DNA of 64,000 nucleotides from Acidobacteriota bacterium (lineage in GTDB: Bacteria; Acidobacteriota; Vicinamibacteria; Vicinamibacterales; UBA2999), in contig CANKJK010000005.1 of NCBI GenBank assembly GCA_947482665.1, positions 66,674-130,673 on the forward strand. Reading direction: 5' to 3'. The notes under the pieces are model-generated. The model was not told where the DNA came from. It saw nothing but the letters and a program-made list of their open reading frames with translations, and ran no database searches. The position numbers and the translations under genes are program-made. Of this stretch, positions 3,980-41,114 are shown piece by piece (position 1 is the stretch's first letter; each line of letters begins with the position of its first letter).

Positions 3980-3985
3980 TGAAGA

Positions 3986-3991
3986 CTCCTC
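3986..3991 (-). promoter_or_regulatory. Shine-Dalgarno (GAGGAG) for the NeuB-like gene
   Basis: The reverse complement of ctcctc at 3986..3991 is GAGGAG, 6 nt upstream of GTG 3979. Confidence 0.6.
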
Positions 3992-4001
3992 TGGCCGGAA
4001 C

Positions 4002-4955
4002 CTACGCGAGGACAGCCGGCCGCAACTGCGCGACGAGCCGGTCCCACCCATATTGCGACTGCGCAACCTCGCGCGCCGCCCGCCCAATTCGCGTCGACTC
4101 CTCCACCCCGGGAAGGCCGTCGCATCGGTTGATATCCACGATGTTCGTCATGTGCTCGAAGCCGGTCGGCGAGTGGGCGTCGAGGTTGGTGATCACGGTG
4201 CACCCGCATTCCATCGCCGCGTTGACCGTGGTGTTGTTGGCACGCAGCCCCTTTTCGAAGAAGGCCGCGAGATACGAGCAGTCGAGCAGGTGGTTGTAGA
4301 CCGCCGTGTCCGAGAGATACCCCATGAAATACACGCGCCCATTGAAGAGCGCTTGCAGTTCCTCGAACCGAACCACGAAGGACCCGTCGAAGTTGGTGCC
4401 TTCGTGCAGCGCCGTTGAGACGAACACAGAATAGGTCTTCCCGGTGGCGTCGAGCAGGTCGCGGAGCCTCGTATAGAGCGGCACCCGGATCTTGTGGGCC
4501 ATGCCGAAGGTGAAGATCTTGAGCTCGGTATCCTCGAACCGCTGCGGGTTGAGAATGGTGCCGGGGCAGAACAACTCGCTGAGGTCTGGCCTCGACGGCC
4601 GGAGTTCCTGCGCCAGTTCGGAGTTGCCGCAGTAGACCTTTCCCGCGGCGGCCAGCAGGCGCTGCTCGATGGGTTCGCCCCGGAAATTGTGGAGGAACAG
4701 TTCAAAGTCACCGGCGTGAGCCTGACTCCACAGGTCGAGGTCCGCCGCGTCCGGCGCCGAAAACTCCTCGAGCTTGATGGACAGCAGCGGCCTCCGGTAC
4801 CGGCCCAGCTCGACCGCACGTATCCCGACCACCGGCACATCAAGGTGACCGGAGAGGATCGTGTTGAACTTGGCGATGCCGCAGGTCCACGGATTCAGGT
4901 GGTACCCGGCAATACAGTCAATCGTCGGCACGGACAGCATGGGCAGATTGTTCAT
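4002..4955 (-). CDS. Putative GT-B glycosyltransferase (GT4-like C-terminal domain)
   Basis: 317 aa. The C-terminal half (KIFTFGMAHKIRV...VYFMGYLSD...YLAAFFEKGLRANNTTVNAAMECGCTVITN) has the layout of a GT1/GT4 donor-binding domain. The N-terminal domain is short and unrecognised. The ATG at 4955 lies 1 nt after the upstream stop. Confidence 0.6.
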   Translation of the reverse strand: MNNLPMLSVPTIDCIAGYHLNPWTCGIAKFNTILSGHLDVPVVGIRAVELGRYRRPLLSIKLEEFSAPDAADLDLWSQAHAGDFELFLHNFRGEPIEQRLLAAAGKVYCGNSELAQELRPSRPDLSELFCPGTILNPQRFEDTELKIFTFGMAHKIRVPLYTRLRDLLDATGKTYSVFVSTALHEGTNFDGSFVVRFEELQALFNGRVYFMGYLSDTAVYNHLLDCSYLAAFFEKGLRANNTTVNAAMECGCTVITNLDAHSPTGFEHMTNIVDINRCDGLPGVEESTRIGRAAREVAQSQYGWDRLVAQLRPAVLA

Positions 4956-4956
4956 T

Positions 4957-5889
4957 CTATCTTAGGGACTCAGACCCATTACCTTGGGCTCCACGTCCGG
5001 CATGCCCCTCTACCAGGTAGACCGGCCGCCGGCGTGCCAGCTCAAGCGTGCGCCAGACATACTCCCCGACCACCCCGAGCGCCGTCAGGTGCAGCCCCGA
5101 CAGCGCGGCCAGGCCGGAGCCCAGGCCGAGGCGGAATCCGCCCCGCAGCACCCAGGCCAATCCGCAGACAAGCCCCGTAGCCAGAAGCAACACACCCGTT
5201 GCGGTCACGAACCGCACAGGCAACGCGGAAAACGCCGTCACCGAATCGGCCACGAGGGCGACTTTCCTGGCGGTGGTCCATCCGGAACGGCCCGCCGCGC
5301 GGGGCTGCTTGTCGTATTCGATGGTGGCCTGGCGAAAGCCCATCCAGGCCACGAGCGCAAAGACGGAGATCTGCCGCTCGGCGTGCTGCGCAAACGCGTC
5401 GAGGACCACGCGGTCGGCCAGGAAGAAGTCGGCGCCACGCTCGGGCAGCGCCGTCACGCCGACCAGCCGGCGCATGATCCAGTAGTAGATGGCCGCGAAG
5501 CCGGCGTGCGCCGGTGCGCCCGGTTGCTCCCGGCGCGTCCCCCAGACGACCTGCGCGCCTCCGCGCCAGGCCGCCAGCATGGCGCCGATCGTCTCTGGCG
5601 GATCCTGGAGGTCGGCAGCCAGCACCACAGCCGCGTCACCCCTGGCGTGATGGAGCCCGGCGGTAATGGCGACGTGCGACCCTTCGTTCCTCGCCAGCCT
5701 GAGGCCACGGACCCTGGGATCGGTCTCAGCAACGGCCCGGAGCACATCGAACGTGTTGTCCGTCGAGTGATCGTCCACGACGATCCACTCCCAGTCCTGG
5801 CCGAGCGTGTCCATCGTTGTCCGGATCCGGGCATGGAGGCCGCCCAGGTTCAGCGCTTCATTGAACGCCGGCGTGACCAGCGTGAGCAT
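4957..5889 (-). CDS. GT2 polyprenyl-phosphate glycosyltransferase (ArnC/GtrB/DPM1-like)
   Basis: Track ORF 4957..6054 trimmed to ATG 5889 (TGATG 1-nt overlap with the DegT stop). Motifs MLTLVTPAFNEALNL, VVDDHSTDNT, LARNEGSHVAITAGL and LAADLQDPPE. Two C-terminal hydrophobic helices, as in GtrB/ArnC. Confidence 0.85.
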   Translation of the reverse strand: MLTLVTPAFNEALNLGGLHARIRTTMDTLGQDWEWIVVDDHSTDNTFDVLRAVAETDPRVRGLRLARNEGSHVAITAGLHHARGDAAVVLAADLQDPPETIGAMLAAWRGGAQVVWGTRREQPGAPAHAGFAAIYYWIMRRLVGVTALPERGADFFLADRVVLDAFAQHAERQISVFALVAWMGFRQATIEYDKQPRAAGRSGWTTARKVALVADSVTAFSALPVRFVTATGVLLLATGLVCGLAWVLRGGFRLGLGSGLAALSGLHLTALGVVGEYVWRTLELARRRPVYLVEGHAGRGAQGNGSESLR

Positions 5890-7040
5890 CACGCCTCTAC
5901 CGCCTTCATCACCGAGGCGATGACCTGATCCTGCCTGGCTTCGTCGAGGGCGTGAAACAGAGGCAGCACCACGGTCGTGTCCTGCAGGTGCTCGCTCACC
6001 GCAAGCCCGCCTGGTGCCGCACGCCAGGCTCCTGCAGGATAGGCTCCCTCGCAATGGGCATTCATGGCGCCGCGCCGCGTGGCAATTCCAGCATCAAGCA
6101 GATGCTGCATCACGGGGCGCTGTCGCGTGGGATCGGTGAGCCTGATGGCGTAGCTCTGCCAGTTGCTCCGGGCCCACGACGGTTCGTGGGGCACGGTCAG
6201 CGCGGAAACACCGGTAAAAGCCCTGGCGTAGCGGGCGGCAAGTAGGCGGCGACGCTCGACGATCGCCGAAAGACGCGTCAGCTGCACGCGGCCGATGGCC
6301 GCCTGAATGTCGGTCATCCGGTAGTTGTAGCCAAGCGTCGGATAGGACTCCGTCACGACCGTCGAGGCCGCATGACGCACGGTGTCCGGCACGTCCATCC
6401 CGTGCTGGCGAAGCAGGCGGAACCGTGCGTCAAGGGCGGGGTCGGCGGTCGTCAGCATCCCGCCGTCTCCCGTCGAGAGGAGCTTTCTCGGATGGAAGGA
6501 AAAGCAGGCGATGTCCGCATGCGGAAGACCGATGCGTTCCCACGCTCCGGTCTCGCTCAGCACCTCGCTGCCGACGGCGCAGGCCGCATCCTCCACCACC
6601 GGCAGGCCATGCCGGGCTGCGATCGCTCGGACCGCACGCAGGTCGCACGGCATCCCCAGCTGATGCACACAGAGAATCGCCCGCGTCACCGGCGAAATGG
6701 CCGCCTCGATGAGTGTCGGATTGATGTTGCAGGTCTCCGGTTCCACGTCGACGAAGACGGGCGTCGCTCCGCAGTACCGCACGACATTCGCCGTGGCGAT
6801 GAACGAGTGGCTGACGGTGACCACTTCATGGCCGGGGCCCACGCCGAGCGCCACGAGCGCCACATGCATCGCCGTGGTGCAACTCGATACCGCGCACGCG
6901 TGCGAGGCGCCGACCGCCTCCGCGAACTCGCGCTCGAACGCCGCCACCTCCGGACCCTGGGTGACCCATCCCGAGAGAATCGCCCTGCGTGCGGCGGCCG
7001 CCTCCTCTTCGCCCATCCAGGGCTGCGCGACCGGTATCAC
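5889..7040 (-). CDS. DegT/DnrJ/EryC1/StrS-family PLP-dependent sugar aminotransferase
   Basis: Track ORF 5889..7112 trimmed to GTG 7040 (GTGA overlap with the upstream stop). VIPVAQPWMGEEE start, FSFHPRKLLSTGDGGML (catalytic Lys block) and NYRMTDIQAAIG. Confidence 0.9.
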   Translation of the reverse strand: MIPVAQPWMGEEEAAAARRAILSGWVTQGPEVAAFEREFAEAVGASHACAVSSCTTAMHVALVALGVGPGHEVVTVSHSFIATANVVRYCGATPVFVDVEPETCNINPTLIEAAISPVTRAILCVHQLGMPCDLRAVRAIAARHGLPVVEDAACAVGSEVLSETGAWERIGLPHADIACFSFHPRKLLSTGDGGMLTTADPALDARFRLLRQHGMDVPDTVRHAASTVVTESYPTLGYNYRMTDIQAAIGRVQLTRLSAIVERRRLLAARYARAFTGVSALTVPHEPSWARSNWQSYAIRLTDPTRQRPVMQHLLDAGIATRRGAMNAHCEGAYPAGAWRAAPGGLAVSEHLQDTTVVLPLFHALDEARQDQVIASVMKAVEA

Positions 7041-8026
7041 GCGGGCATCCAGTTCCGCACGACTTCGCGCTCGAGAAGAATCGCCGGGTCCACACCCTGT
7101 TCGCGATACCACGCAAGCAGGCGCGTGAGCCCCTCGCGCAGGCCGATGGTCGGCTCGTAGCCCAGCAGTTGCTTCGCCTGCGACATGTCGGCATAGAGCC
7201 GCAGCACGTCACCGGGCCGTCCCTCGACGTGCTCGACGGCAGCATCGGGCCGTCCGGCAGCCTCGGCCACGGCGCGGGCCAGATCGCTGACTGTTGTCTC
7301 CGCACCGAACCCGAGATTCATCGTCCGGCCGATCGCGTCTGGATGCGATCCGGCCAGCAGGATCCCTCGCGCCGAATCGGACACGTACGTGAAGTCACGT
7401 GTCTGGGAGCCGTCGCCAAAGATCACCATCGGCTTCCCCGCCAGACAGCGCAACAGGAACTTTGGAATCACCTCGCCGCTGTCGCCCTCGTGATGGCTCC
7501 TCGGACCGTAGGTGTTGAACGGCCGCACCACGACCGTCGGATAGCCGTACGTGCGGTGGTAGGCCCGCGCGTAGGACTCGCCGGCCAGCTTCGACCCGCC
7601 ATAGACCGTGCACGGGAAGGTCGGATGGTCTTCCGTCATCGGTGCCCAGCGCGCTGTGCCGTACACCTCCGAGCTCGACACGTAGACAAAGCGGCCCACG
7701 CCAGCCGCGCGCGCTGCCGCGAGCAGCCGGAGTGTTCCGGTCGCGTTGACCTCGTGGTTTTCCTCGGGCGCATGGACGGAGTGCCGTACACCCAGGCAGG
7801 CCAGGTGGAATACGACGGCCGTCTGCTCAAGCCAGGGCGCCAGCGACGCCGCATCACGGACGTCGGCCTCGACAACCGTCAGGCCCGCCTGTCCGTCAGG
7901 CAGGTTGGCGCGGGATCCATTGACGAAGTTGTCGACCACGACCACCTGTTCGCCACGGTCGAGGAGTTGATGCACGAGTTCGGACCCTATGAACCCGGCG
8001 CCACCGGTCACCAGCACACGTGTCAT
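7037..8026 (-). CDS. NAD-dependent NDP-sugar epimerase/dehydratase (extended SDR)
   Basis: 329 aa with MTRVLVTGGAGFIGSELV, SSSEVYG and YGGSKLAGE (YxxxK). Confidence 0.9.
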   Translation of the reverse strand: MTRVLVTGGAGFIGSELVHQLLDRGEQVVVVDNFVNGSRANLPDGQAGLTVVEADVRDAASLAPWLEQTAVVFHLACLGVRHSVHAPEENHEVNATGTLRLLAAARAAGVGRFVYVSSSEVYGTARWAPMTEDHPTFPCTVYGGSKLAGESYARAYHRTYGYPTVVVRPFNTYGPRSHHEGDSGEVIPKFLLRCLAGKPMVIFGDGSQTRDFTYVSDSARGILLAGSHPDAIGRTMNLGFGAETTVSDLARAVAEAAGRPDAAVEHVEGRPGDVLRLYADMSQAKQLLGYEPTIGLREGLTRLLAWYREQGVDPAILLEREVVRNWMPA

Positions 8027-8500
8027 CTAGCGCGTCTCTCCTGTGGGCGCCGCGATCACCTCATCGGCGTCGGGACCACACACCGCTTCGATGCCCGGTT
8101 GTGCGAGCAGCGTCAGCACATCTTTCGCATGGGCGCGCCCTGCGATGCAGAGCAGGTGCGCGCGATCCGCGTCCTCGATCGGCAGCCCCCGCGCCATCAG
8201 GAGACCCAGGATCCCCGCCCGATCCCGCAGGGCAGCGGCCTCCATGGGCGTGATGCTCCGGCGCGGCACCGGCCGCATCAGGTCGTTGCCAATCGGATAC
8301 CGCGCCAGACTGTCCCCACCCGCACGAAGGAGACGGACGACCTGTGGCGGGTCGTCCTCAACCACGGCTTCGGCCACATTCAACGGGCGATCCGTCAATG
8401 GCCGGAAGCCCAGGAGCTCAAAGCCCGTGTACACCGCCACCAGGACCGTCGCGGCCACCACTGGGCCCGCCGCCAGCCATCGCACCATTCGTTCCGTCAT
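8027..8500 (-). CDS. Signal-anchored small protein with ankyrin-like repeats (paralog K1 of 3)
   Basis: Track ORF 8027..8734 trimmed to ATG 8500 (ATGA overlap with the stop of M1). It has one N-terminal hydrophobic helix (WLAAGPVVAATVLVAVYTGFELL). This is followed by ITPMEAAALRDRAGILGLLMARGLPIED, which fits the ankyrin TPLxxAAxxGxxxxVxxLLxxGA pattern. Paralogous to 11045..11506 and 14693..15175. Confidence 0.6.
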   Translation of the reverse strand: MTERMVRWLAAGPVVAATVLVAVYTGFELLGFRPLTDRPLNVAEAVVEDDPPQVVRLLRAGGDSLARYPIGNDLMRPVPRRSITPMEAAALRDRAGILGLLMARGLPIEDADRAHLLCIAGRAHAKDVLTLLAQPGIEAVCGPDADEVIAAPTGETR

Positions 8501-9915
8501 TGGGTGGTGTCGAACCAGTCGCCGGGCCAACGCCAGTGGATCTGGATCCGGGGCGCCGCCGGTCTCTTCCACAGCGCATCGGCCATGAGCCGGTCCGTAA
8601 TCGCCCGCTCGCGCGGGCTTGCCAGGCTGACCTCCTGGTCCTTCAGCCACCCATCGGCGTAGGCCCAGGCCTTCCGCGTGGCGTGCGCGCTGTCGCGGAG
8701 GCTGTAGTGCACGCCTGCCATCTTGATACCCCACGAGAGCGACAGCACCGCCAGGAGCACCACCGTTCCGGCCGCTCGCGGTGACGGCCCTGGGCTGTCA
8801 ACCCGCGCCGCAAGTGCGCCCCCGGCCGCCAGGGCGAACAGTGCGCCGGCTGGACCCATGATGACGTCCTTCGTGTACACCAGATTCATTGTGGCGTTCC
8901 CGGCCAGTACGGCGGCAAACACCACGATGATCCGATCGGCCTCCGAGAGCTGCCACCGGCGCCAACGATCCCAGCCTCGCGCCACGTGCGTGACGAGCAG
9001 CAGCGTCGTCGCGCTGCAGGCCGCCACATTGACGACCATCCAGGGCGCGAGGTCGTCACGCAGCGCCGCGCGCGTCACCCAGAACACGCCGGCACGCGGC
9101 TCGGCGAACAACACCGACCCAGCAGACGCCAGCACGTTATAGGTAAAGAGCTGCCACGGATGGGCGCCAAATCGCGCCTGCACCTCCCGGGGCTCCAGCA
9201 CGGCAAACCCAAAGCCGGTCGCCCGCTCATCGAGTCCAGGCGTCCCGACGTGCAGCACCAGATACCGCATGCCGAGATACGCCACCACGCCAACAACCAC
9301 GGCGCCGACGCCCCAGCGGGAGATGCCCCGCCAGCCAGCGATGTAGGCAGCGACCACGATGACCCCGACGAGCAGTCCGCTCTCGACGGAGAGGGCCGCG
9401 ATGGCCAGCAGCACCACAGCGCCGGCATCGGACCACCAGTGATGCTTCGCTCGCGCCAGGAGCACCGTCAACAGACAGCACAGGACAATAGTCAGGTAGG
9501 CGTTGACCGGGAACGCCTCTCGAATGTTGTCGGCGAAGGTGTGCATCGAGAGCAGCACCGCCACGGCAATCGGCGCCGATGTCGCCTGCGCCCAGGTGCG
9601 AACGCCCAGACACGCCACCAGCGCCGCGATCGTCAGCGTGAGCTGCACCGCGTGCACACCACGAAACCACGTCGTGTAGTCGCCGTCCGAGGCGAGATAC
9701 GCGATCCGGATTGGGACGAAGAGCAGAGGCCGCATATAGCCGTTGGCCCAGAGGTTGTTGACGATCAGTTCGCGCAACGTCCGCCGGTCGGCCGAGAAGA
9801 TGTTCTGCAGGCTGTCGCTCAACTGGACCGGAATGTCGATCAGGAAGTACGACGCCAACGCCGCGACCACTGCCGCATAGATCCAGACAGCCCCCCTTGG
9901 GGTGAGACGCATCAC
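8497..9915 (-). CDS. Polytopic inner-membrane protein, paralog M1 of 3 (GT-C-like or polymerase-like, family unassigned)
   Basis: 472 aa and almost entirely hydrophobic helices. Blocks shared with M2 and M3: IPVQLSDSL.N after TM1, REAFPVNA(Y/F)LTI, ALSVESGLLV, GTPGL.ER(A/S)(T/S)GFGF, YTKDVIM(G/S)P and a soluble C-terminal tail ending WFDTTQ. Start is GTG 9915 (GTGA overlap) or ATG 9912. Confidence 0.7.
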   Translation of the reverse strand: MMRLTPRGAVWIYAAVVAALASYFLIDIPVQLSDSLQNIFSADRRTLRELIVNNLWANGYMRPLLFVPIRIAYLASDGDYTTWFRGVHAVQLTLTIAALVACLGVRTWAQATSAPIAVAVLLSMHTFADNIREAFPVNAYLTIVLCCLLTVLLARAKHHWWSDAGAVVLLAIAALSVESGLLVGVIVVAAYIAGWRGISRWGVGAVVVGVVAYLGMRYLVLHVGTPGLDERATGFGFAVLEPREVQARFGAHPWQLFTYNVLASAGSVLFAEPRAGVFWVTRAALRDDLAPWMVVNVAACSATTLLLVTHVARGWDRWRRWQLSEADRIIVVFAAVLAGNATMNLVYTKDVIMGPAGALFALAAGGALAARVDSPGPSPRAAGTVVLLAVLSLSWGIKMAGVHYSLRDSAHATRKAWAYADGWLKDQEVSLASPRERAITDRLMADALWKRPAAPRIQIHWRWPGDWFDTTQ

Positions 9916-11048
9916 GCGCCTGTCCGCCCGTCGCCGCGCACGGCGCCGTCCCGCAGAATGGCGGCCACGTAGTCGACCTGTTCGGGCGTCAGTTCCGGAT
10001 AAATGGGCAGAGAGAGCACTTCTCCAGCCGCGTGCTCGGCCACGGGAAAGTCGCCGGGCGCGCCGCCGAGATTCCTATAGGCGGGCTGGAGGTGCACGGG
10101 AATGGGATAGTGCACACCCGTCTGCACGCCCGCCGCCTCGAGCCGCACGCGCGCGGTATCCCGATCCGCCAGGCGCACTGCGAACACGTGATACACGTGC
10201 CGGTCACCAGGCCGCTCTGTGGGCACCCGCACGCCGGACCCGACGAGCGCGGCCACATACTGGGCGGCCCGGGCCCGTCTCGCTTCGGTCCAGGCCTGCA
10301 GATGCCGGAGCTTGATGCGAAGGATGGCACCTTGAATGCCATCCATCCGGTAGTTGAAGCCCTTGAGCAGGTGCTCGTACCGGCGCTCCTCGCCCCAGCT
10401 TCGGAGCAGCCGCGCCGTGTGCGCGATCGCGGGGTCCGCGGTCACAAGCGCACCACCTTCGCCATAGGCTCCGAGATTCTTGCCGGGATAGAAAGAGAAG
10501 CAGGACACATCGCCCATCGAGCCGCAGGGCTGCCCCTGGTACGTGGCGCCATGTGCCTGCGCCGCATCCTCGATCACGCGCAGCCCGTGCCGCCTGGCGA
10601 TGGCGAGAATCGGATTCATGTCCGCCGGGTGCCCGAAGAGGTGGACGGGCATGATGGCCTTCGTCCGGGGAGTAATGGCCGCCTCGATCTTCGCCGGATC
10701 CATCGTCAGGTACTCCGGCTCCACGTCCACGAGAACGGGTCTCGCGCCGGCGTATTCAATCGCTGAGACGGTCGCGACGAACGTGAACGGCACCGTGATG
10801 ACCTCATCTCCCGGTCCGATCCCGCAGGCCAGCAGCGCCAGATGGAGCGCACTCGTGCCGGAGTTCACGGCCACGCACTCCGAAGTGCCCGTAAACGCGG
10901 CGAACTCCTGCTCGAACGCGGTGACATCAGGTCCGAGAATGAACTGCGTGCTCCCAAGCACCCGCAACACCGCGGCATCAATCTCCGTCTTGAGGGCGCG
11001 GTACTGGGAGGCCAGGTCGAGATACGGAACCTTCATCACGATTCTCAC
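9912..11048 (-). CDS. DegT-family PLP-dependent sugar aminotransferase (second copy)
   Basis: 378 aa with KVPYLDLASQYRALKTEID, NSGTSALHLAL, FSFYPGKNLGAYGEGG (catalytic Lys) and FNYRMDGIQGAIL. Start is GTG 11048 (GTGA overlap) or ATG 11036. Confidence 0.9.
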   Translation of the reverse strand: MRIVMKVPYLDLASQYRALKTEIDAAVLRVLGSTQFILGPDVTAFEQEFAAFTGTSECVAVNSGTSALHLALLACGIGPGDEVITVPFTFVATVSAIEYAGARPVLVDVEPEYLTMDPAKIEAAITPRTKAIMPVHLFGHPADMNPILAIARRHGLRVIEDAAQAHGATYQGQPCGSMGDVSCFSFYPGKNLGAYGEGGALVTADPAIAHTARLLRSWGEERRYEHLLKGFNYRMDGIQGAILRIKLRHLQAWTEARRARAAQYVAALVGSGVRVPTERPGDRHVYHVFAVRLADRDTARVRLEAAGVQTGVHYPIPVHLQPAYRNLGGAPGDFPVAEHAAGEVLSLPIYPELTPEQVDYVAAILRDGAVRGDGRTGA

Positions 11049-11506
11049 TTCTCTGGGGGTAACGGACGGTCAGCCAAGGCCGCGCACTCCTCTGCCTGCG
11101 GGACACGGGGCAGGAGCATGGCCGCGATTTCCGCGTCTCCGTACGATAGCGCAGCGCACGCGAACTGGACGCGGCTCCCAGCATCCGGGGCCGCACCGAA
11201 ATCAAGCAGCACGCGAATCAGGTCTGGTTCATGCACGCGAAGCGCCTCCTGCATCGGCGTCGTGCGCCGGCCCGGCTGCTCCGGCGTCGGACTCGGATAC
11301 TCCGCGGTGACGGAGGCGCCAGCGTCTAGCAGGCGCACCGCCTGGGCGAAGTCCCGGTGGTAGATTGCCTGCGACGGCGTCATCGGCGCGTCCGCCCAGG
11401 GCGTGGCCACCAGCACACCTCCGACGAGGGCCCACACACCCGCCAGCGGCGCGACAGCCGCCACGGCGATGACCGCGGCGCCGAGCTGTCGTGAGAGGAA
11501 CGCCAT
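11045..11506 (-). CDS. Signal-anchored small protein with ankyrin-like repeats (paralog K2)
   Basis: 153 aa. N-terminal helix AAVIAVAAVAPLAGVWALVGGVLV, then TTPMQEALRVHEPDLIRVLLDFGAAPD (ankyrin-like). The start abuts the stop of M2 (11507). Confidence 0.6.
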   Translation of the reverse strand: MAFLSRQLGAAVIAVAAVAPLAGVWALVGGVLVATPWADAPMTPSQAIYHRDFAQAVRLLDAGASVTAEYPSPTPEQPGRRTTPMQEALRVHEPDLIRVLLDFGAAPDAGSRVQFACAALSYGDAEIAAMLLPRVPQAEECAALADRPLPPEK

Positions 11507-12973
11507 CTACTGCAGGTCGAAATAGGTGAAGTAGCCAGGCACAGGACGGGACGGCAACGGCACGGGCATGTCCAGCGCCCGGCGCCGGAGGGTCTCCACC
11601 AGTGCCCTGTCGGCGGGCGCATCGACACTGATGTGCTGGCCCTCGAGCCACGGGTACACGGTGGCCCAGTCGTTCCGGGTCTTGAAGGCCTCCGCCGTGA
11701 GCAGGACAGGGAGCGCCGCGGCGCGCACCGCCCAGCCCGTGGCCATCACTGCGACGACCGCGGCAACCGCGACGCGACCCGAGAGTGGGGCCCGGGCCGG
11801 TTCGGCCAGCGAGCGCACGGCCGCGTAGACGATCAGGGCTAAGCACACGCCACCCGGGCTCATGATCACGTCCTTGGTGTACGCGTAGCCGAGGCAGGCG
11901 TTCGCGCCGAGTACGGCACACCCGACCGCGGCTACGCGGTCGGCGTAGGTCATCCGGCAGTCCTGCCAGCGGCGAGTGGCCCCGATCGCCCAGACGACAC
12001 AGACGAGCGTGGTCAGCACCGAGACACCGATGTCCAGGGCGAGCCAAGGCGGCATCTCGCCATTCTCGAGCCACCGCTTCGCCGACAGGAAGATGCCGGC
12101 CCGCGGGTCTGAAACGAGCACCGTCATCAGGGACGCCGCTACGTTGTACGCATAGAACACCATGGGGTGCCCGCCGAACCGACGGATCAACTCCGGCGGA
12201 TCCAGAACCGAGATGCCGAAGCCGGAGGAGCGCTCCACGAGGCCGGGGAGGCCGTTGCCGGACACGCCGAAGCGCAGGCCTAGGTATCCCGCCACCAGTG
12301 CGATCGAGAGCGCCACACCGGCGCGGGAGATGCCCGTCAGGCCGACAAGGCGGCCCGCGAGGATGGCCACGGCCACCAGCAGCCCGGACTCTACGGTCAA
12401 CGCAGCGAAGACCAGGAGCGCGGCCGCCGCGACGTCCACCACTGGTCGCGGCCTGAGCGTGCTCAGATTGATGGCCAGCAGCACGCACACGACAATCGTC
12501 AGGAAGGCGTTGACGGGGTGCGCCTCGCGGACGGTGCCGCTGAAGGTGTGCAGTCCGAACACGACAGCCAGGGCGAGCGGCACGAAGGCCGCGTCGAGCC
12601 ACGACCGGACACGAAGGAGACGGACCGTGAGGACGGTCATGACCAGCAGCTGCACGGCATGGATGGTCTTCAGCACCAGCAGGAAGCCCGGCGACGCGAG
12701 GTCGTAGGCAAGCTTGATCTGGACCCACAACAGCGGCCGCAGGAAGCCCTTCGCCGAGAATTGGTCAATGAACACCCGCCGGTACGGCACGCTGCGGGCC
12801 TCCAGCATGTTCCCAAGGCTGTCGCTGACCTGCACGGGGATGTGCGCGACATACCAGGCCACCACGAGGGCCATGCCTGCACCCAGTGCGTAGGACACGA
12901 TCACCCAGAGGCGAGCCGCCCGGCCGTCGTGCACGCCTGGTGCGGCGCCCGAATCTGACGCAGACACGGTCAT
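11507..12973 (-). CDS. Polytopic inner-membrane protein, paralog M2
   Basis: Track ORF 11507..13015 trimmed to ATG 12973 (ATGA overlap with the acetyltransferase stop). Carries the same conserved blocks as M1 and M3: HIPVQVSDSLGN, REAHPVNAFLTI, ALTVESGLLV and YTKDVIMSPGG. Confidence 0.7.
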   Translation of the reverse strand: MTVSASDSGAAPGVHDGRAARLWVIVSYALGAGMALVVAWYVAHIPVQVSDSLGNMLEARSVPYRRVFIDQFSAKGFLRPLLWVQIKLAYDLASPGFLLVLKTIHAVQLLVMTVLTVRLLRVRSWLDAAFVPLALAVVFGLHTFSGTVREAHPVNAFLTIVVCVLLAINLSTLRPRPVVDVAAAALLVFAALTVESGLLVAVAILAGRLVGLTGISRAGVALSIALVAGYLGLRFGVSGNGLPGLVERSSGFGISVLDPPELIRRFGGHPMVFYAYNVAASLMTVLVSDPRAGIFLSAKRWLENGEMPPWLALDIGVSVLTTLVCVVWAIGATRRWQDCRMTYADRVAAVGCAVLGANACLGYAYTKDVIMSPGGVCLALIVYAAVRSLAEPARAPLSGRVAVAAVVAVMATGWAVRAAALPVLLTAEAFKTRNDWATVYPWLEGQHISVDAPADRALVETLRRRALDMPVPLPSRPVPGYFTYFDLQ

Positions 12974-13677
12974 ACGTGGCGGCCGGACGCCGGGACCCGC
13001 GGATCGGTGCGCCACCGCAGGAACCGGGCCGGAACGCCTGCGACGATCGCGCCCGGCTCAACGTCGGCCGTGACAACCGAACCCGCCCCGATGATGGCCC
13101 CCTTGCCGACGCGCACGCCCGGCAGGATTACCGCGCTCACGCCGACATCCGCCCACGCCTCGACCCGCACCGGCGCGATGACCAGGTCGGTGGCAATCAC
13201 GGGCCCATCCACCGGTTCGCCCGTGTGCTGGGAGCCCAGAATCCTGGCCCCCGAACCCCAGCCCACGTACTCGCCAATTTCCAGGTCGCGTGCATCGAGA
13301 TAGGCCTGTGGTCCGATCCACGCACGGTCTCCGATGACACACCGTCCGTCGAAGCGTCCCTGGATAAAGGACTGTTCGCCGATGAAGACGCCGTCACCCA
13401 CCTCGATGGTCTCTGGGTGGCGGACGAGGGCGCCGCGGCCGACCCGAAGGCCGTCCCCGCACCGCTTCAGCATCGCGCGCCAGGCCACCCGGCGCAGCCG
13501 CGCGTCCTCCTCCGTGTCGCCCCACGCGTGCGCCGCCGCCACGGCCCGCAGATCGGCCAGCGTGCGGTCACGGCGCCACGCGTCCGCCAGCGCCACGTCT
13601 TCGGCGGGGTCGGGCGCCACGGCCTGCTGGCCGTGCACGGCCGGCACGATCCGCGAGCCCGCGGGCTCGTCTCTCAC
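12970..13677 (-). CDS. Left-handed beta-helix (hexapeptide-repeat) acyl/acetyltransferase
   Basis: Track ORF 12970..13806 trimmed to GTG 13677 (GTGA overlap). Hexapeptide periodicity is visible in VGDGVFIGEQSFIQG...IGDRAWIGPQAYL...VGVSAVILPGVRVGKGAIIGAGSVVTADVEPGAIVAGVPA. Confidence 0.8.
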   Translation of the reverse strand: MRDEPAGSRIVPAVHGQQAVAPDPAEDVALADAWRRDRTLADLRAVAAAHAWGDTEEDARLRRVAWRAMLKRCGDGLRVGRGALVRHPETIEVGDGVFIGEQSFIQGRFDGRCVIGDRAWIGPQAYLDARDLEIGEYVGWGSGARILGSQHTGEPVDGPVIATDLVIAPVRVEAWADVGVSAVILPGVRVGKGAIIGAGSVVTADVEPGAIVAGVPARFLRWRTDPRVPASGRHV

Positions 13678-14696
13678 CGGAGGACCGGCTCCGTGGAAGC
13701 CGATGCCCCGCGCGCCGCGAGCGAGGTCGCCGCGGCCTCGAGCAGCCGCACCACGCGCAGGCCGGCCGCGCCGTCCGTGAGCGGCGTCGCCCCGGTTTCG
13801 ATGCACTCGGCGAAGTGCGCGATCTCGGTCTGCAGCGCCTCGGCCACGGGCAGGTGCGGCGCCGACATGTCGCCGGAGCGATACCCGACCAGGACCTGGT
13901 AGAGATTCTCTGGACTGGTGTCGACCGAGATGCCGCGGTCGTACACCTTCACCTTCTCGCTGGCTTCCAGGTCGTCGAAGACCACCATCCGGCGGCTTCC
14001 GCCGATGAGCGTCCGCCTAACCTTCACCGGGGCAAGCCAGCTCGCGTGCACATGGCCGAGGAGCGTCCCTTCGAAGAACATCGTCAGATAAGCCACGTCC
14101 TCGGGCTTGCCCGGCACGTGCGACATCCCTGTGGCGGACACCGAGACCGGGCTCCGTCCGAGCACGTAGTCCATGATCGAGAGGTCGTGCACGGCGAGGT
14201 CCCACAGCACGTTGACGTCGTGCTGGAAGAGGCCGAGGTTGATCCGCACCGAGTCGTAGTAGTAGATGTCGCCCAGCTCACCGTCTTCGACGAGCTGCCG
14301 GATCTTGCGCACCGCCGGCGTGTAGACGAACGTGTGATCCACCATCAGGGTGAGCCCGCGCCGCGCGGCCTCCGTCACGATCGCTTCCGCGTCGGCCACG
14401 GACGAGGCCAGCGGCTTTTCGACCAGCACGTGCTTCCCCGCCCTGAGCGCCGCCAGCGCCAGGGGAGCATGCGTGGCCACCGGCGTTGCGATGGCGACCG
14501 CGTCGATGTCGGGCGCGGCGAGGAGCGCCTCGGCGCTCTCGACCACCCGAGCGCCTGGGAACCGCCGGGCCGCCGCCTCCCGGCGCGCCCCCGACGGATC
14601 CGCGATGGCGACGAGCGCCGTGGATGGGCATTCGGCAAAGTTGCGCGCCAGGTTCGGCCCCCAGTAGCCGTATCCGATTACGCCGATCCTAATCAT
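13674..14696 (-). CDS. Gfo/Idh/MocA-family NAD-dependent sugar oxidoreductase (WbpB/UDP-GlcNAc 3-dehydrogenase-like)
   Basis: 340 aa with MIRIGVIGYGYWGPNLARNF Rossmann start and HVLVEKPLA. ATGA overlap with the stop of K3. Confidence 0.85.
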   Translation of the reverse strand: MIRIGVIGYGYWGPNLARNFAECPSTALVAIADPSGARREAAARRFPGARVVESAEALLAAPDIDAVAIATPVATHAPLALAALRAGKHVLVEKPLASSVADAEAIVTEAARRGLTLMVDHTFVYTPAVRKIRQLVEDGELGDIYYYDSVRINLGLFQHDVNVLWDLAVHDLSIMDYVLGRSPVSVSATGMSHVPGKPEDVAYLTMFFEGTLLGHVHASWLAPVKVRRTLIGGSRRMVVFDDLEASEKVKVYDRGISVDTSPENLYQVLVGYRSGDMSAPHLPVAEALQTEIAHFAECIETGATPLTDGAAGLRVVRLLEAAATSLAARGASASTEPVLR

Positions 14697-15175
14697 CGCT
14701 GCTGCACCGCCTCACCACAGGCATCGGGTGTCCAGTCCGGAGGGGAAATCATGTGACTCACGCTCGTCCGGCCCTTGCCTGCCAGAAAACACGCGACCTC
14801 GCGGGCCTCCGCCGGCAGCAGGGTCGCGCCAAACCGCTGCGCCAGCCGCACCATGTCGTCGTCCGACGTATACGCGGCGGCGGACAGGGGCCGGACACGC
14901 GTGCCGACATCGCTGGCGAGCATGCCCGGCCGAATATCGTACATTGCGGCCGGATCCGCTCCGTCCCGGAACATCCTGACAGCGGTCGCCGAGTCGCTGA
15001 GCGCCAGCGCTTCCGCCACGTTGCGCGGCGGGTCCGGCCGGAAAGGTCCCATGCCAGCCGCCCCTCCGAGGGTTACGGCCGCGACGAACCCCACGGCCGC
15101 CACGAGTGGCGCCACGATCACAAGGGGCACGGCCCACGGGCGGTTCATCGGGTCCCGGCGCTCACTGGGTCTCAT
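14693..15175 (-). CDS. Signal-anchored small protein with ankyrin-like repeats (paralog K3)
   Basis: Track ORF 14693..15247. Candidate starts are ATG 15175 (14-nt overlap with the M3 stop) and ATG 15148 (13-nt gap). Helix WAVPLVIVAPLVAAVGFVAAVTL, then NVAEALALSDSATAVRMFRDGADP and RPLSAAAYTSDDDMVRLAQRFGA. Confidence 0.55.
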   Translation of the reverse strand: MRPSERRDPMNRPWAVPLVIVAPLVAAVGFVAAVTLGGAAGMGPFRPDPPRNVAEALALSDSATAVRMFRDGADPAAMYDIRPGMLASDVGTRVRPLSAAAYTSDDDMVRLAQRFGATLLPAEAREVACFLAGKGRTSVSHMISPPDWTPDACGEAVQQR

Positions 15176-16583
15176 CGAACCATCCCGGGCTCCACGGCAG
15201 TCGTGGCCAGGGTGGAACAGGCAGTCGAGTGAGCGCGTCTGTTTCAAGCGCGTTCTTCACCGCCCGCTTCGCCGGGGTGTCGAGCACAATCTCCTGGCGC
15301 GCCAGCCACTGATCCACCTGCGCCCACTCCTTCCGGACCGAGACGCTCTCCTTGCGCACGCTGTAGTGAATGCCGATGAACTTGATGGCCCACGCGGCCG
15401 TGAGCATCGTCAGTGCCGCGGTTGCCACGACGGAGGCGGCCCGGCCCCGACGCAGCCACGGTGCCGCCAGCGCGTCGCGCATGGCCACGTAGGCGGCCGC
15501 GGCGACGAAGACGCCGGCCACCGACAGGACGACGTCCTTCAAGTACGCGTAGCAGAACGCCGCGTTGGCCGCGGCCATTACCGGCAGCATCAGGAGCACG
15601 CGGTCATGGTGCGTGAGGCCGTGTGTCCAGCCTCGACGCCGGCGCCAGAGCGAGATGGCCACCAGGAGTGTCACGCCGGTGGCACAGGCCACGTTCAGTT
15701 GCATCCAGGGCTCGTGCGGTCCGACCTCAAACCCCCGGACGAACCGGTACACGCCGCCCCGCGGTTCGCCGACCAACAGCGCCAGCAGTGCCCCGGACAC
15801 GTTGTAGGCGTAAAAGACGAGCGGACGGCCTCCGAACCGGCGCTGGATGTCGGCCGCGTCCATCGGGGCAAACCCGAAGCCGGATGCCCGCTCCACCAAA
15901 TCGGGCGTACCGGTGTGAAACCACCCGAACCGCACGACGAGGTAGGCGGCGACGCCCGCCGTGATCGTGATCACGGCTCCCCGCGAGATGCCGCGCCAGC
16001 CCAGCACCCACGCGGTCACCGCAGCGACCCAGACCAACAGGCCCGACTCGAGCGTCAGCACCGCGTAGGCAAACAGCAGCACGGCGAGGACGTCTTTGCC
16101 GAGGCGCGGGCGCCCGGCCGCGAGGACCGCCACCCACAGCGTGCACACAGCCATCGCCAGGAAGTGGTTGATCGGGAACGCCTCGCGGATGGCGCCGGGA
16201 AACGTGTTGCCGCCGACAAGTACCGCCACGGCGAAGAGAAACGCGGCCAGGTCCGTGCCCGTCTCGACCCGCACCCAGCGCGCCAGCAGTAGGAGGAGCC
16301 CGAGCAGCTGCGCCACGTGGATGGCCTTGAACCAGACGAAGTAGGCACCGCCGGACCAGTCCATGACGAGCCGGTACGGCGGCCACATCAGTGGCCGGAA
16401 GAATCCCTCATTCGTCATCTTCCCGACGAACACCTGCCAGGCGCTGACATCCGCCACGCTGATCATGTTGCTGGCGCCATCGGTCAGCTGAATCGGGATC
16501 CGCGTCATGAAGTAGCCGAGCGTGGCCGTCACCAAGACGGCGACCGCGATAGCCAGCGCCTTCCACGGCCGCGGGCCGCTCAA
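15162..16583 (-). CDS. Polytopic inner-membrane protein, paralog M3
   Basis: Track ORF 15162..16706 trimmed to TTG 16583 (TTGA overlap with the acetyltransferase stop). Blocks RIPIQLTDGASN, REAFPINHFLAM, VLTLESGLLV, GTPDLVERASGFGF and the tail ending WFDETQ. Confidence 0.7.
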   Translation of the reverse strand: MSGPRPWKALAIAVAVLVTATLGYFMTRIPIQLTDGASNMISVADVSAWQVFVGKMTNEGFFRPLMWPPYRLVMDWSGGAYFVWFKAIHVAQLLGLLLLLARWVRVETGTDLAAFLFAVAVLVGGNTFPGAIREAFPINHFLAMAVCTLWVAVLAAGRPRLGKDVLAVLLFAYAVLTLESGLLVWVAAVTAWVLGWRGISRGAVITITAGVAAYLVVRFGWFHTGTPDLVERASGFGFAPMDAADIQRRFGGRPLVFYAYNVSGALLALLVGEPRGGVYRFVRGFEVGPHEPWMQLNVACATGVTLLVAISLWRRRRGWTHGLTHHDRVLLMLPVMAAANAAFCYAYLKDVVLSVAGVFVAAAAYVAMRDALAAPWLRRGRAASVVATAALTMLTAAWAIKFIGIHYSVRKESVSVRKEWAQVDQWLARQEIVLDTPAKRAVKNALETDALTRLPVPPWPRLPWSPGWFDETQ

Positions 16584-17053
16584 CGGCCCTCCGAACGGCG
16601 CACGAGGCGCGCCGGCACCCCTGCGACGACGGCGCCTGCCGGTACGTCGTGCGTCACCACCGCACCCGCACCGACCATTGCACCCGCGCCGATTGTGACG
16701 CCGCACATCAACACAGCACCGCTACCGATGGAGGACCCGCGGCCCACGCGCGTCGGCACCACGGTCCAGTCAGCCTCCGTTTGCAGGCGACCATCGGCCG
16801 TGGCACGCGGGTAGCGGTCATTGATGAACATGACGCCGTGGCCCACGAAGACATCGTCCTCGATGGTCACGCCCTCGCAGACGAAGGTGTGGGACGAGAT
16901 CTTGCAGCGCGCGCCAACGGACGCGCCCTTCTGGATCTCGACGAAGGTACCGATCTTCGTGTCGGCGCCGATGGCACAGCCATACAGGTTCACCAAGTCC
17001 GGATGGTGAATGACCACGCCGGAACCCAGCACGACGGAAGGGGCGATAGGCAT
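16580..17053 (-). CDS. Left-handed beta-helix N-acetyltransferase (QdtC/WxcM-C-terminal-like)
   Basis: Track ORF 16580..17104 trimmed to ATG 17053 (1 nt after the upstream stop). Hexapeptide repeats are visible in IGADTKIGTFVEIQKGASVGARCKISSHTFV...VGRGSSIGSGAVLMCGVTIGAGAMVGAGAVVTHDVPAGAVVAGVPA. Confidence 0.8.
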   Translation of the reverse strand: MPIAPSVVLGSGVVIHHPDLVNLYGCAIGADTKIGTFVEIQKGASVGARCKISSHTFVCEGVTIEDDVFVGHGVMFINDRYPRATADGRLQTEADWTVVPTRVGRGSSIGSGAVLMCGVTIGAGAMVGAGAVVTHDVPAGAVVAGVPARLVRRSEGR

Positions 17054-17054
17054 C

Positions 17055-18251
17055 TCAGGGTGTCCTGCGGCGTCCGCGCAAGCCGAGCCGGTGCGTGAGC
17101 ACAAGCAGATCGTACATCGCCCGCTTCACACCACGTCGGACCAGCGCCATCCTGTGGTGCAGCACCTGCCCGGCCTCATAGCTCCAGGCCCTGGCATTCC
17201 GGCGTGCAACGGCGGCCTGATAGACCGCCGCCCGCACGAGGTGCAGCAGGTACTTCTCCGTGACGCGGGCGATGTGCTTGGGCCGCAGACGCATCCGCAT
17301 GCGGTACCAGAACCAACGGCCTTCGTAGCGCAGATCCTTCCACGCCTGGACGAGGGCCTCCCACTGTTGGTCGATGCGGTGGAGCAGGTAGCCCTGCTTC
17401 GTGTAGTGCCGAAACAAGTACATCGCCTGATACCGCAGCACCAGCACCGCCATGGCGAGGCGACCCAGGCCGGCAGGCCGCGGCCCCGTCACATACTCCC
17501 GGAACAGGACGCGCGAGTGCTGGAGCCAGATGGGCTGATCGAGCCCGCCCGGCGAGGCACCGGCAAAGAGCGACGTTCGCTGCTTCTCCACGCTCGCCTG
17601 TGCGGGCTGGCGCCTGAACCAGAGCACGTCCGAGACCTGGGCGAATCGACCGGCGAGGGCCAGCTCCACCATCAACAGGCGGTCCGGTTGAATCACCGTC
17701 CTGAAGACGCCAGCCCGCGTCAGGGCCTCGATGCGCATCAAACCGTAGACCATGTCTCCCGCGCCAACCGGCTCTGAGGCAAAAGCCATGACCCGGCGTG
17801 CAGGGTTGTCGAGGGTCGTCGTATCAAACGCCTTTGGCGGCTTGTCCAGTGGCTGACGAGCATCATCCACCCGCTGCGTGAGGGCATAGGCGAGGACGGT
17901 GCCGGGTTGTGCCTCGAGCGCGGCGCGCACGCGCCGCAACCAGTCTGGATGCCACCAGTCGTGGTCGCTGGCCCACGCAAAGTACTGCGCCGAGGGAAAC
18001 GTCGACACCGCCAGCTCGAACGCATCACGCCAGGTGGGCACCATCCCCTGCCGTACGGGATGCCGGAGGTAGCGGACACGCGGGTCTCCGAGATACCGAT
18101 GCACCACCGCTCCGGTGTCATCCACGGACGCATCGTCAACCAGGACCACACCGAAGTCCTGGTCTGTCTGCGCCAGAAGGGAATCGAGGGCTTCGGGCAG
18201 GTGACGCGCGTTGTTGTAGAGCGTCACGCCGAAGACCACGGACGGTGTCAT
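17055..18251 (-). CDS. Family-2 glycosyltransferase with unrecognised C-terminal half
   Basis: 398 aa. The N-terminal part, VVFGVTLYNNARHLPEALDSLLAQTDQDFGVVLVDDASVDDT, is a GT2 signature. Confidence 0.8.
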   Translation of the reverse strand: MTPSVVFGVTLYNNARHLPEALDSLLAQTDQDFGVVLVDDASVDDTGAVVHRYLGDPRVRYLRHPVRQGMVPTWRDAFELAVSTFPSAQYFAWASDHDWWHPDWLRRVRAALEAQPGTVLAYALTQRVDDARQPLDKPPKAFDTTTLDNPARRVMAFASEPVGAGDMVYGLMRIEALTRAGVFRTVIQPDRLLMVELALAGRFAQVSDVLWFRRQPAQASVEKQRTSLFAGASPGGLDQPIWLQHSRVLFREYVTGPRPAGLGRLAMAVLVLRYQAMYLFRHYTKQGYLLHRIDQQWEALVQAWKDLRYEGRWFWYRMRMRLRPKHIARVTEKYLLHLVRAAVYQAAVARRNARAWSYEAGQVLHHRMALVRRGVKRAMYDLLVLTHRLGLRGRRRTP

Positions 18252-20553: not shown

Positions 20554-21258
20554 CTACCCCTTTGCTCCGCCTGACGCCATGCGGCGCTCGGCGTCGGCCC
20601 AGTCCTCGGGGCCATCGATCGTGAGCGACTCCAGCGCCGACACCACCATCGGCCGACAGTCCCGCCCATAAATACTCTGCTGTTCCAGTAACGTTCTGCG
20701 CCAGAACGTATACACGGTCCCATCCCTGACGCAGGCGACGCGTGCGTCCTGCCGTCGCGTGATGCGCGCGCCTTCTGGCAGGAACGGCACCAGCCGTCCG
20801 GACTCGTCCACTCGCATTACGTAGTCGGGCGACAGGTGCCGGGGCAGTTCCAGAACCCCGACCACCGAGTCCGCGCCGGTCTCCTGCAGCAGTTCGACCG
20901 ACCGGCGGATGTGCGCCGGCGTCCTGAGGGGCGAGGTTGGCTGGAGCAGGACGATGATGTCCGGCTCCCAGCCCTGCTCGTCCAGATACCTCACCGCGTG
21001 CGCAATGACCGGGAGCATGGGCGTGTCGTCGGCCGCGAGCGTCGGGGGCCGTAGAAACGGCACCTCGAGACCCCACGCCCGGCCAACCGCGGCAATCTCC
21101 TCGCTGTCGGTGGAGAGCACGGTCCGGTCGATGACACCCGAACCGGCCGCGGCCTCCACGGCGTAGGCGAGCAGCGGCTTGCCGTGAAGCGGCAACGTGT
21201 TCTTCCCAGGCAGCCCCTTCGAGCCGCCGCGCGCCGGGACCAGCCCGAGCACGTTCAT
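20554..21258 (-). CDS. neuA: CMP-N-acylneuraminate (nonulosonate) cytidylyltransferase
   Basis: 234 aa. The MNVLGLVPARGGSKGLPGKN signature, in a neuC/neuB neighbourhood. Confidence 0.85.
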   Translation of the reverse strand: MNVLGLVPARGGSKGLPGKNTLPLHGKPLLAYAVEAAAGSGVIDRTVLSTDSEEIAAVGRAWGLEVPFLRPPTLAADDTPMLPVIAHAVRYLDEQGWEPDIIVLLQPTSPLRTPAHIRRSVELLQETGADSVVGVLELPRHLSPDYVMRVDESGRLVPFLPEGARITRRQDARVACVRDGTVYTFWRRTLLEQQSIYGRDCRPMVVSALESLTIDGPEDWADAERRMASGGAKG

Positions 21259-27318: not shown

Positions 27319-27327
27319 CGTCCGGTG

Positions 27328-40851: not shown

Positions 40852-41114
40852 GTGGCGTACAGGCTCCCGCCCTCTCACCTACAGGCGGTGACGACGGCCG
40901 TCCCGGGCTGCGGCAAAGCGGGGCTTCGCGGTCAGCCGGAGGGACGGTACACGGGTTCAGTGCGACAAGGCCGCCCGTACCTGGCAATGGTGACGCCGGA
41001 ACGGCAGGCCTTCGCCGGGTCGGGGAGGCCCGATCAGGACAGCGAGACGAGCAGTTGGCGTGCGGAGCACCAGACCCGGAAAGTGGCGGGAGCGGTCATG
41101 CGCAATAGAGGTGA

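Follow-up and report, generated by a model that had tools for sequence, protein, structure and literature searches.

An ankyrin-repeat partner encoded with each copy of a putative GT-C-type glycosyltransferase in a glycan locus of Acidobacteriota

Periplasmic post-assembly glycosylation by GT-C-type glycosyltransferases is a main source of surface-glycan diversity, and its known forms combine a lipid-sugar synthase, a flippase and a single-chain transferase, as in the three-component systems GtrA/GtrB/GtrC, ArnC/ArnEF/ArnT and CsbB/GtcA/YfhO and in the GT136 system of Citrobacter youngae (PMC11127046). In the general GT-C plan an acidic residue directly follows the first transmembrane (TM) helix, the first loop is large, those after it are small, and another large one precedes the last four TM helices; the last short outer loop has a basic residue and then a proline, and the C-terminus is outside (PMC6801728). 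GT136, an enzyme characterised by experiment, has 11 TM helices, the first of which (TM1) is followed by a helical domain, and D31 is its catalytic residue (PMC11127046). Several GT-C enzymes carry an acceptor-recognising extracytoplasmic domain in cis, such as the TPR domain of TMTC1-4 and the MIR domain of PMT (PMC7801869) or the carbohydrate-binding module (CBM) of EmbC, AftD and GT136 (PMC11127046). Here, we describe a polytopic membrane protein (M) that is encoded together with a small membrane-anchored ankyrin-repeat protein (K) three times over in a 64,000-nucleotide stretch of the Acidobacteriota contig CANKJK010000005.1 (the window). On the best reading, M makes up a new sequence family within the GT-C-type glycosyltransferases and would use polyprenyl-phosphate sugars. 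As an earlier first-pass annotation of this DNA had surmised, full-text searches on ankyrin together with GT-C, undecaprenyl or periplasm yielded no glycan system with an ankyrin partner.

The three pairs lie on the minus strand, exactly where the first-pass annotation had placed them, and in each the start of K overlaps or abuts the stop of M. They are M1 (8497-9915, 472 aa) with K1 (8027-8500, 157 aa), M2 (11507-12973, 488 aa) with K2 (11045-11506, 153 aa; K hidden Markov model (HMM) E 3.8e-27), and M3 (15162-16583, 473 aa; M HMM E 1e-194) with K3 (14693-15175, 160 aa; K HMM E 5e-43). M1 and K1 share an ATGA at 8497-8500, the TAG of M2 abuts the ATG of K2 (11507/11506), and the ATG of K3 at 15175 is situated 14 nt inside M3, with a second ATG at 15148, 12 nt past M3, as an alternative start; M3 itself begins with a TTG at 16583 that overlaps the stop of the upstream LbH gene. 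The G+C contents at third (GC3, 0.78-0.88) and second (GC2, ~0.5) codon positions of the M and K frames are the same as those of neighbouring genes with known domains. The M paralogs are 35-38% identical to one another (M1 and M2: 38% over 435 aa, E 1e-88) and the K paralogs 24-31% (pairwise E 2e-8 to 2e-7); K diverges faster than M, with paralog identities of 24-26% vs 35-37% in the distance comparison. The shared M motifs listed previously are all present (IPVQLSD, IPVQVSD or IPIQLTD; REA(F/H)P(V/I)N; ESGLLV; YTKDVIM or YLKDVVL; and the tails), except that M2 deviates slightly from the GTP(G/D)L..GFGF block with GLPGL..GFGI.

None of the Pfam-A or NCBIfam models is matched by M at its cut-off, and the marginal Pfam and NCBIfam matches of M and K, DUF4149 and CedA2 among them, were dismissed as chance; PDB matches of M to Importin-5 and OST2 were set aside with E-values of only 0.3-0.6. 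M matches no well-characterised family by sequence and falls outside the existing GT-C sequence families GT83 (ArnT; Pfam PMT_2), GT39, GT66 and GT136, the last compared by description only. What points to GT-C is the predicted structure, by its topology and motifs more than by its fold scores. The AlphaFold2 (AF2) model of M1 (pLDDT 85.5, pTM 0.89) consists of TM1, short helices at residues 34-44 and 47-57, a helix bundle and a tail of ~70 residues. In a Foldseek search against the PDB, AftA, AftD, STT3 and Pmt4 alone superpose on it, with probability 0.75-0.87, TM-score 0.34-0.42 and root-mean-square deviation (rmsd) 10-14 Å, at weak E-values of 0.25-0.78.

Counts of Lys and Arg across 87 full-length M sequences place the N-terminus and residues 104-107, 156-159, 193-199, 314-324 and 374-380 in the cytoplasm, which predicts 11 TM helices with the N-terminus in; the cytoplasmic location of the N-terminus is settled by natural fusions of M, at this end, to a cytoplasmic GT2 domain. 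The 11-TM model puts loop 1 (27-79), REAFPVN, ESG, the loop 221-290, YTKD..P and the C-terminal tail on the periplasmic side. Loop 1 holds D34 of IPVQLSD just after TM1, a residue invariant in 17/17 sequences and replaced by Glu at the equivalent position of a divergent M subfamily. The other conserved polar motifs (E133/N138, E178, R231, Y259/N260, E272/R274 and Y347/K349/D350..P355) are likewise all predicted to be periplasmic, and K349...P355 is nearly invariant. M would thereby combine, within the 7-13 TM helices of a polytopic GT-C protein, a cytoplasmic N-terminus, a conserved acidic residue soon after TM1, a large first outer loop with short helices, a second large outer loop of 70 residues (221-290) ahead of the last four TM helices (291-313, 325-343, 350-373 and 381-400), and a last short outer loop in which Pro comes after a basic residue at the characteristic spacing (R/K x4-14 P). 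As modelled, this layout is the general GT-C plan of PMC6801728 and that of GT136 (PMC11127046). Some larger homologs (P0037, P0041, P0042, P0044, P0045 and P0112; 730-925 aa) have an unannotated second polytopic domain of ~260-430 aa ahead of the M domain.

The ankyrin character of K emerges from profile and structure comparisons. Single K sequences remain below the Pfam cut-offs (K2 matches Ank weakly, E 0.014), and no Pfam or NCBIfam model is reached at cut-off. A profile of 41 K sequences matches single DARPins of ~160 residues (E ~1e-16 to 1e-17; positions 48-139 of the profile) as well as ankyrin-1/2 (E 3e-45). The AF2 model of K1 (pLDDT 84.8) has a long N-terminal helix (3-29) followed by three helix pairs; its top 50 Foldseek matches are all ankyrin-repeat proteins (DARPins/ANK), most at probability 1.0, and for 3ANK (1n0q) the superposition gives TMt 0.73 at rmsd 2.2 Å. 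The tandem helix-turn-helix repeats of ~33 residues carry the TPLH-like and GA(D/N) consensus. Profile, AF2 model and Foldseek thus agree on the N-terminal helix and ankyrin repeats ascribed to K from its translation, and K as modelled is an N-terminal TM anchor plus a domain of three ankyrin repeats. In the K proteins of the GT2::M fusion clade (L039, L045, L048, L052 and L053), which are shorter, the match to the K HMM ends near position 115, and these seem to have two ankyrin repeats, not three.

The orientation of K was judged from two features. Lys and Arg average 1.69 in the ten residues before the hydrophobic helix and 0.52 in the twelve after it (81 K sequences), and the soluble part contains exactly two Cys in 60/81, the nearly invariant C118 and C141 (K1 numbering). 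Because of this charge bias and the conserved Cys pair, K is predicted to be anchored in type-II orientation with its ankyrin domain in the oxidising periplasm, which addresses the topology question posed in the first-pass annotation. One feature of the TM helix, a Pro (P13) present in at least 90% of sequences, suggests that this helix does more than anchor K passively.

The pairing itself is widespread. A scan of one genome per GTDB species, in which M and K genes were called with local HMMs, returned 78 loci, all in metagenome-assembled genomes (MAGs) and nearly all from Vicinamibacterales or other Acidobacteriota. Four carry other MAG labels (Bifidobacteriaceae for L008, an archaeon for L043, Gemmatimonadales for L073 and Acidimicrobiia for L075) and may be mis-binned Acidobacteriota contigs or rare transfers. 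The loci contain 88 distinct full-length M genes, three of them at contig ends; among the 85 with downstream sequence, K follows directly on the same strand in 81, with an aligned start between -21 and +94 nt relative to the M stop (median 6 nt). One further M has K divergently upstream, and in another M is merged with K by a 1-nt frameshift artefact. The adjacency also holds from the other side, as K genes found by K-profile search, independently of M, have M immediately upstream in 5/5 cases, including the divergent M subfamily with Glu for Asp after TM1. The distance matrices of M and K correlate (r 0.79; Mantel 0/999), and the pair has therefore been inherited and duplicated as a unit. In the representative library of 1.84 billion proteins clustered at 50% identity, the M profile found 743 proteins, 324 of them below 1e-30. 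Two apparent M-K translational fusions were rejected as artefacts and entered neither the evidence nor the topology: in L056 (741-2660) a 1-nt frameshift hides the true C-terminus of M (...WYGD and stop), and in P0154 an out-of-frame Arg-rich stretch lies between the M and K parts.

The nature of the sugar donor is suggested by neighbouring family-2 glycosyltransferases (GT2). GT2_a (4957-6054, minus strand; PF00535), 2.4 kb from M1, matches GtrB (5ekp; E 6e-47) and ArnC (E 2e-30), both near full length; it has hydrophobic C-terminal segments, read as TM, and is the likely maker of the lipid-linked donor. GT2_c (57443-58243, minus strand; PF00535), the second DPMS/GtrB/ArnC-like enzyme of the locus, has DPMS (E 8e-9) and GtrB (E 4e-7) as its best PDB matches. 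Elsewhere, P0071, a protein of the representative library, is a GT2::M fusion whose GT2 part best matches DPMS, ArnC and GtrB, and a GT2 of this type is encoded in one ORF (open reading frame) with M in six loci and directly upstream of M-K in eight more. The order M-K-SDR-DegT-GtrB-like GT2 found downstream of M1-K1 recurs in about ten loci. Fusion or adjacency in at least 14 loci gives indirect support to the view that M uses a polyprenyl-phosphate-linked sugar.

The triplication described for the three paralogous cassettes is not recent. The closest relatives of M1, in Vicinamibacterales MAGs, are 71-78% identical, and relatives in other MAGs reach 73% for M3 and 51% for M2 (in L001); because each cassette has closer relatives in other MAGs than its paralogs in the window, identity levels mark the three as old paralogs. 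The M2-K2 cassette (window 11045-12973) is absent from the otherwise syntenic loci L005, L006 and L007 of related MAGs, in which the gene order is LbH-M-K-Gfo-LbH-DegT-M-K-Epim-DegT-GT2. One to three M-K pairs occur per contig in other MAGs, and cassette number thus differs between strains, as one would expect of modules that modify side chains variably.

By its Pfam annotation, the window (G+C ~68%) is a very large glycan locus with genes in essentially one unbroken minus-strand run from ~600 to 64000. Directly downstream of K1 is an SDR epimerase/dehydratase (7037-8026; PF01370, E 2e-63), followed by the DegT-type sugar aminotransferase DegT_a (5889-7112; PF01041, E 2e-108). On the upstream side, Pfam bears out the amino-sugar genes noted ahead of each cassette: the aminotransferase DegT_b before M1 (9912-11048; PF01041, E 9e-128), a LbH (hexapeptide) acyltransferase (12970-13806; PF00132) and a Gfo/Idh/MocA oxidoreductase (13674-14696; PF01408, E 1e-29) before M2, and a second LbH acyltransferase (16580-17104; PF00132, E 9e-18) and GT2_b (17055-18251; PF00535) before M3. 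GT2_b is SpsA-like (best PDB match SpsA, E 5e-9) and not of the polyprenyl-phosphate type. In all, the window holds several SDR epimerases/dehydratases, two DegT, two LbH acyltransferases, two Gfo oxidoreductases, methyltransferases, a UDP-sugar dehydrogenase, three GT2 genes and one ABC-transporter ATPase. Two NeuB-family synthases, a CMP-sugar transferase (cytidylyltransferase) and a hydrolysing UDP-GlcNAc 2-epimerase (2900-4087, 20554-21258, 22213-23367 and 23364-24488) are encoded as well; therefore the locus makes at least one, perhaps two, nonulosonic acids. The ATPase (43432-44706, minus strand; PF00005, E 3e-21) and a 5-TM ORF (42552-43445) suggest ABC-transporter-dependent polymer export and are likely the exporter of the locus polymer, a candidate acceptor; the 5-TM ORF is a candidate gene, and a longer ORF of 716 aa (41278-43428), unannotated and in a different frame, shares part of its DNA.

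More than 15 large proteins of the window have no Pfam match, and for ten other unannotated proteins of the locus Pfam at E<=1 returned nothing useful. Nine large soluble ORFs (338-1104 aa) in 24392-40878 (minus strand), without a Pfam match even at E<=1, consist of two recurring domain types: one of ~480 aa that begins with 'K(I/V)LF(V/L)ARH..YLRNF', and one of ~330 aa with 'PII(V/L)GPW(L/V)SE.G(F/Y)E(L/A)LYW'. Their families also flank M-K pairs across many Acidobacteriota loci, and a possible role for them is that of cytoplasmic glycosyltransferases, as yet unclassified, for the nonulosonic-acid polymer. Another protein without a Pfam match, a polytopic membrane protein of 947 aa (52434-55277, minus strand), carries 'GGDD' immediately behind its first TM helix, and its periplasmic insert contains about four internal repeats; its homologs are often encoded directly downstream of M-K in other loci, and it may be another GT-C-type enzyme. 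A 317-aa soluble protein (4002-4955, minus strand) without a Pfam match adjoins the GtrB-like GT2 and NeuB in about ten loci; its C-terminal half resembles, by eye only, a GT-B (GT4-like) nucleotide-sugar binding motif.

Taken together, we propose that M represents an unclassified GT-C-type glycosyltransferase family and K its cognate, co-translated and periplasm-facing ankyrin partner. The cytoplasmic enzymes beside the cassettes (SDR, DegT, LbH acyltransferases and Gfo oxidoreductase) would make nucleotide-activated amino sugars, which GT2_a, and perhaps GT2_c, would load onto undecaprenyl phosphate. Once flipped across the membrane, by a flippase for which no gene was recognised in the window, the sugar would be transferred by M at the periplasmic face, with Asp34 as the putative catalytic acid/base, to an acceptor that is most likely the nonulosonic-acid-containing polymer built by the locus and exported through the ABC transporter. 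K would pack on M through the TM helix with the conserved Pro and hold its ankyrin groove beside the periplasmic active site, where it could serve as an acceptor-recognition or specificity subunit. In this role it would replace, in trans, a part that M does not have: the large periplasmic CBM, TPR or MIR domain found in cis at the C-terminus of other GT-C enzymes. Each of the three cassettes would have its own side-chain sugar to add or its own position at which to act. For this pathway as a whole, we see the chances of being right and of being wrong as evenly balanced.

Several results weigh against it. In phmmer and profile searches M had no match in the PDB and showed no sequence link to any GT-C family, and hhalign found no relationship between the M profile and E. 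coli ArnT (probability 1.7%); in the Foldseek search of M1, every E-value exceeds 0.06 and every TM-score is below 0.5. The topology derives from the positive-inside rule only, by which we also rejected a 12-TM alternative, since its two most basic short loops would face out; that alternative would put the C-terminal tail in the cytoplasm. A hydropathy scan of the window ORFs of at least 80 aa detected no small GtrA- or ArnEF-like flippase, and only two polyprenyl-phosphate-type GT2 genes serve three M genes. K is truly absent in 2/85 M genes (L003/L034 and L023) and is thus not universally required; 'obligate', as the first-pass annotation had called the partner, is slightly too strong for an association that is near-constant. 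The co-divergence of M and K follows from their co-inheritance and is no proof of contact, and ankyrin repeats usually bind proteins, which a glycan acceptor fits less well.

This last point leads to the main rival of the exported polymer as acceptor, namely a protein. M-K could be a protein O-glycosylation machine like PMT or TMTC, in which M, still a GT-C enzyme with an undecaprenyl-phosphate sugar, would modify a secreted or envelope protein recruited by the ankyrin domain. K has a clear ANK domain, a protein-binding module; the TMTC family shows that GT-C O-mannosyltransferases with extracytoplasmic helical-repeat domains exist (PMC7801869), Pmt4 is among the four structural matches of M, and small GT2-M-K modules occur outside large polysaccharide clusters, e.g. 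in L055, L058 and L072. In most loci, however, the pairs have polysaccharide genes around them (an ABC exporter, nonulosonic-acid synthesis genes and many putative glycosyltransferases), the analysis yielded no candidate for the substrate protein, and we regard this reading as unlikely. A different question is whether the pairing is merely syntenic, with K an unrelated periplasmic protein, for example a folding or redox helper like Pseudomonas aeruginosa AnkB, that does not act on M. The case of AnkB and KatB, as related in PMC12754779 from Howell et al. 2000, shows that a periplasmic ankyrin-like protein with an unrelated role exists, the M-K interaction is an inference, and two M lineages do without K. 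Against this, 81 pairs keep the overlap or abutment of start and stop at a divergence to ~25% identity in K and ~35% in M, the two genes are duplicated together and co-diverge, every independently retrieved K has M upstream, and the Pro in the K helix is conserved, which together make mere synteny improbable.

Two further readings concern the activity of M. As a flippase or transporter of a lipid-linked sugar, with K as an accessory, M would form synthase-flippase fusions with GT2 like those of GT2-GtrA, and the fusion and adjacency to GT2 are equally expected under this reading and do not exclude it on their own; the window offers no other flippase candidate, and the lowest Foldseek E-values of M1 are nominally those of transporters. 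These transporter matches fail to superpose, though (TM-score 0.10-0.16, rmsd 20-28 Å, probability <0.2), the conserved polar residues sit in predicted periplasmic loops with none lining a membrane-spanning pathway, TM1 with its Asp and short helices is the GT-C signature, and the locus would be left without an enzyme that uses the undecaprenyl-phosphate sugar, unless the 947-aa protein is one. The fold and the loop-located conserved residues thus argue for a transferase over a flippase, and we hold the latter to be very improbable. Least probable of the four is a polymerase or ligase of the Wzy/WaaL kind acting on undecaprenyl-diphosphate-linked oligosaccharides, with K modulating chain length as Wzz does. 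M is polytopic and belongs to a polysaccharide locus, three paralogs could serve three polymers, and 'polymerase' had been named beside 'membrane transferase' in the first-pass annotation. Yet M has no Pfam match to a Wzy_C or O-antigen-ligase domain, no WaaL, SEDS, RodA or Wzy structure is among its Foldseek matches, the ABC exporter argues against a Wzx/Wzy pathway, and the fused or adjacent GT2 is of the monophosphate DPMS/ArnC/GtrB type. K, with one TM helix and ankyrin repeats, is also unlike Wzz, which has two TM helices and a coiled coil. A GT-C transferase remains the best reading of the 'transferase or polymerase' alternative.

Should the GT-C reading be correct, the M-K family, large and restricted to Acidobacteriota as far as sampled (743 clusters at 50% identity) and with an ankyrin partner in more than 95% of cases, would be a candidate new glycosyltransferase family, and K would be a rare case of ankyrin repeats outside the bacterial cytoplasm. 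A dedicated K suggests another way of supplying an acceptor-binding module, in trans and exchangeable. A stronger version of this idea is possible, although we rate it as somewhat more likely wrong than right: M-K would be the first two-subunit bacterial GT-C enzyme, in which a co-evolving, periplasmic and membrane-anchored ankyrin subunit is required for activity and sets the acceptor specificity, for a glycan or possibly a protein. If this is true, exchanging K between cassettes would retarget the enzyme, CAZy would gain a new GT family, and bacterial ankyrin repeats would gain a new role outside the cytoplasm; a K that sets specificity could make the pair useful in glycoengineering as a modular tool. 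M-K also gives access to the envelope glycans, almost unstudied, of the abundant soil Vicinamibacterales.

Among described systems, M-K functionally resembles the three-component periplasmic glycosylation systems, while M by sequence is in none of their families. As in those systems, a polyprenyl-phosphate GT2 of the GtrB/ArnC/DPMS type is encoded with a polytopic transferase, M as modelled spans the membrane about 11 times, with an Asp following TM1 and a small helical domain in the periplasm, and the pair here belongs to an ABC-exporter polysaccharide locus. DegT and SDR genes adjoin M as arnB and arnA adjoin arnT, and the gene order parallels arnB, arnC, arnT. Unlike in those systems, M has no sequence similarity to ArnT and reaches no Pfam or NCBIfam cut-off, no GtrA, ArnEF or MATE flippase is recognised in the window, and the near-constant extra component is a separate membrane-anchored ankyrin protein, with up to three M-K pairs per locus. 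M further differs from GT136, Emb and AftD, which carry a periplasmic CBM, in having only a ~70-aa tail after the last TM helix.

The combination of a GT-C core with a soluble extracytoplasmic domain, for which an acceptor role is proposed in K, likens M-K to TMTC1-4, PMT and EmbC/AftD/GT136. In M-K this domain consists of ankyrin repeats and sits on a polypeptide of its own, which has a TM anchor and whose gene overlaps or abuts that of the transferase. Small membrane-anchored partners of a GT-C subunit are also found in the multi-subunit oligosaccharyltransferase (STT3 with Ost4 and OST2), whose STT3 is one of the four structural matches of M; this complex is eukaryotic, uses a dolichyl-diphosphate oligosaccharide as donor, and has no ankyrin proteins among its partners. 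Of the known periplasmic ankyrin proteins the nearest is AnkB of P. aeruginosa, which, in the account that PMC12754779 gives of Howell et al. 2000, is likewise a bacterial extracytoplasmic ankyrin-repeat protein encoded beside the enzyme it supports; in that account the enzyme is the soluble catalase KatB and no membrane glycosyltransferase, and the likeness between AnkB and K lies in the shared type of repeat.

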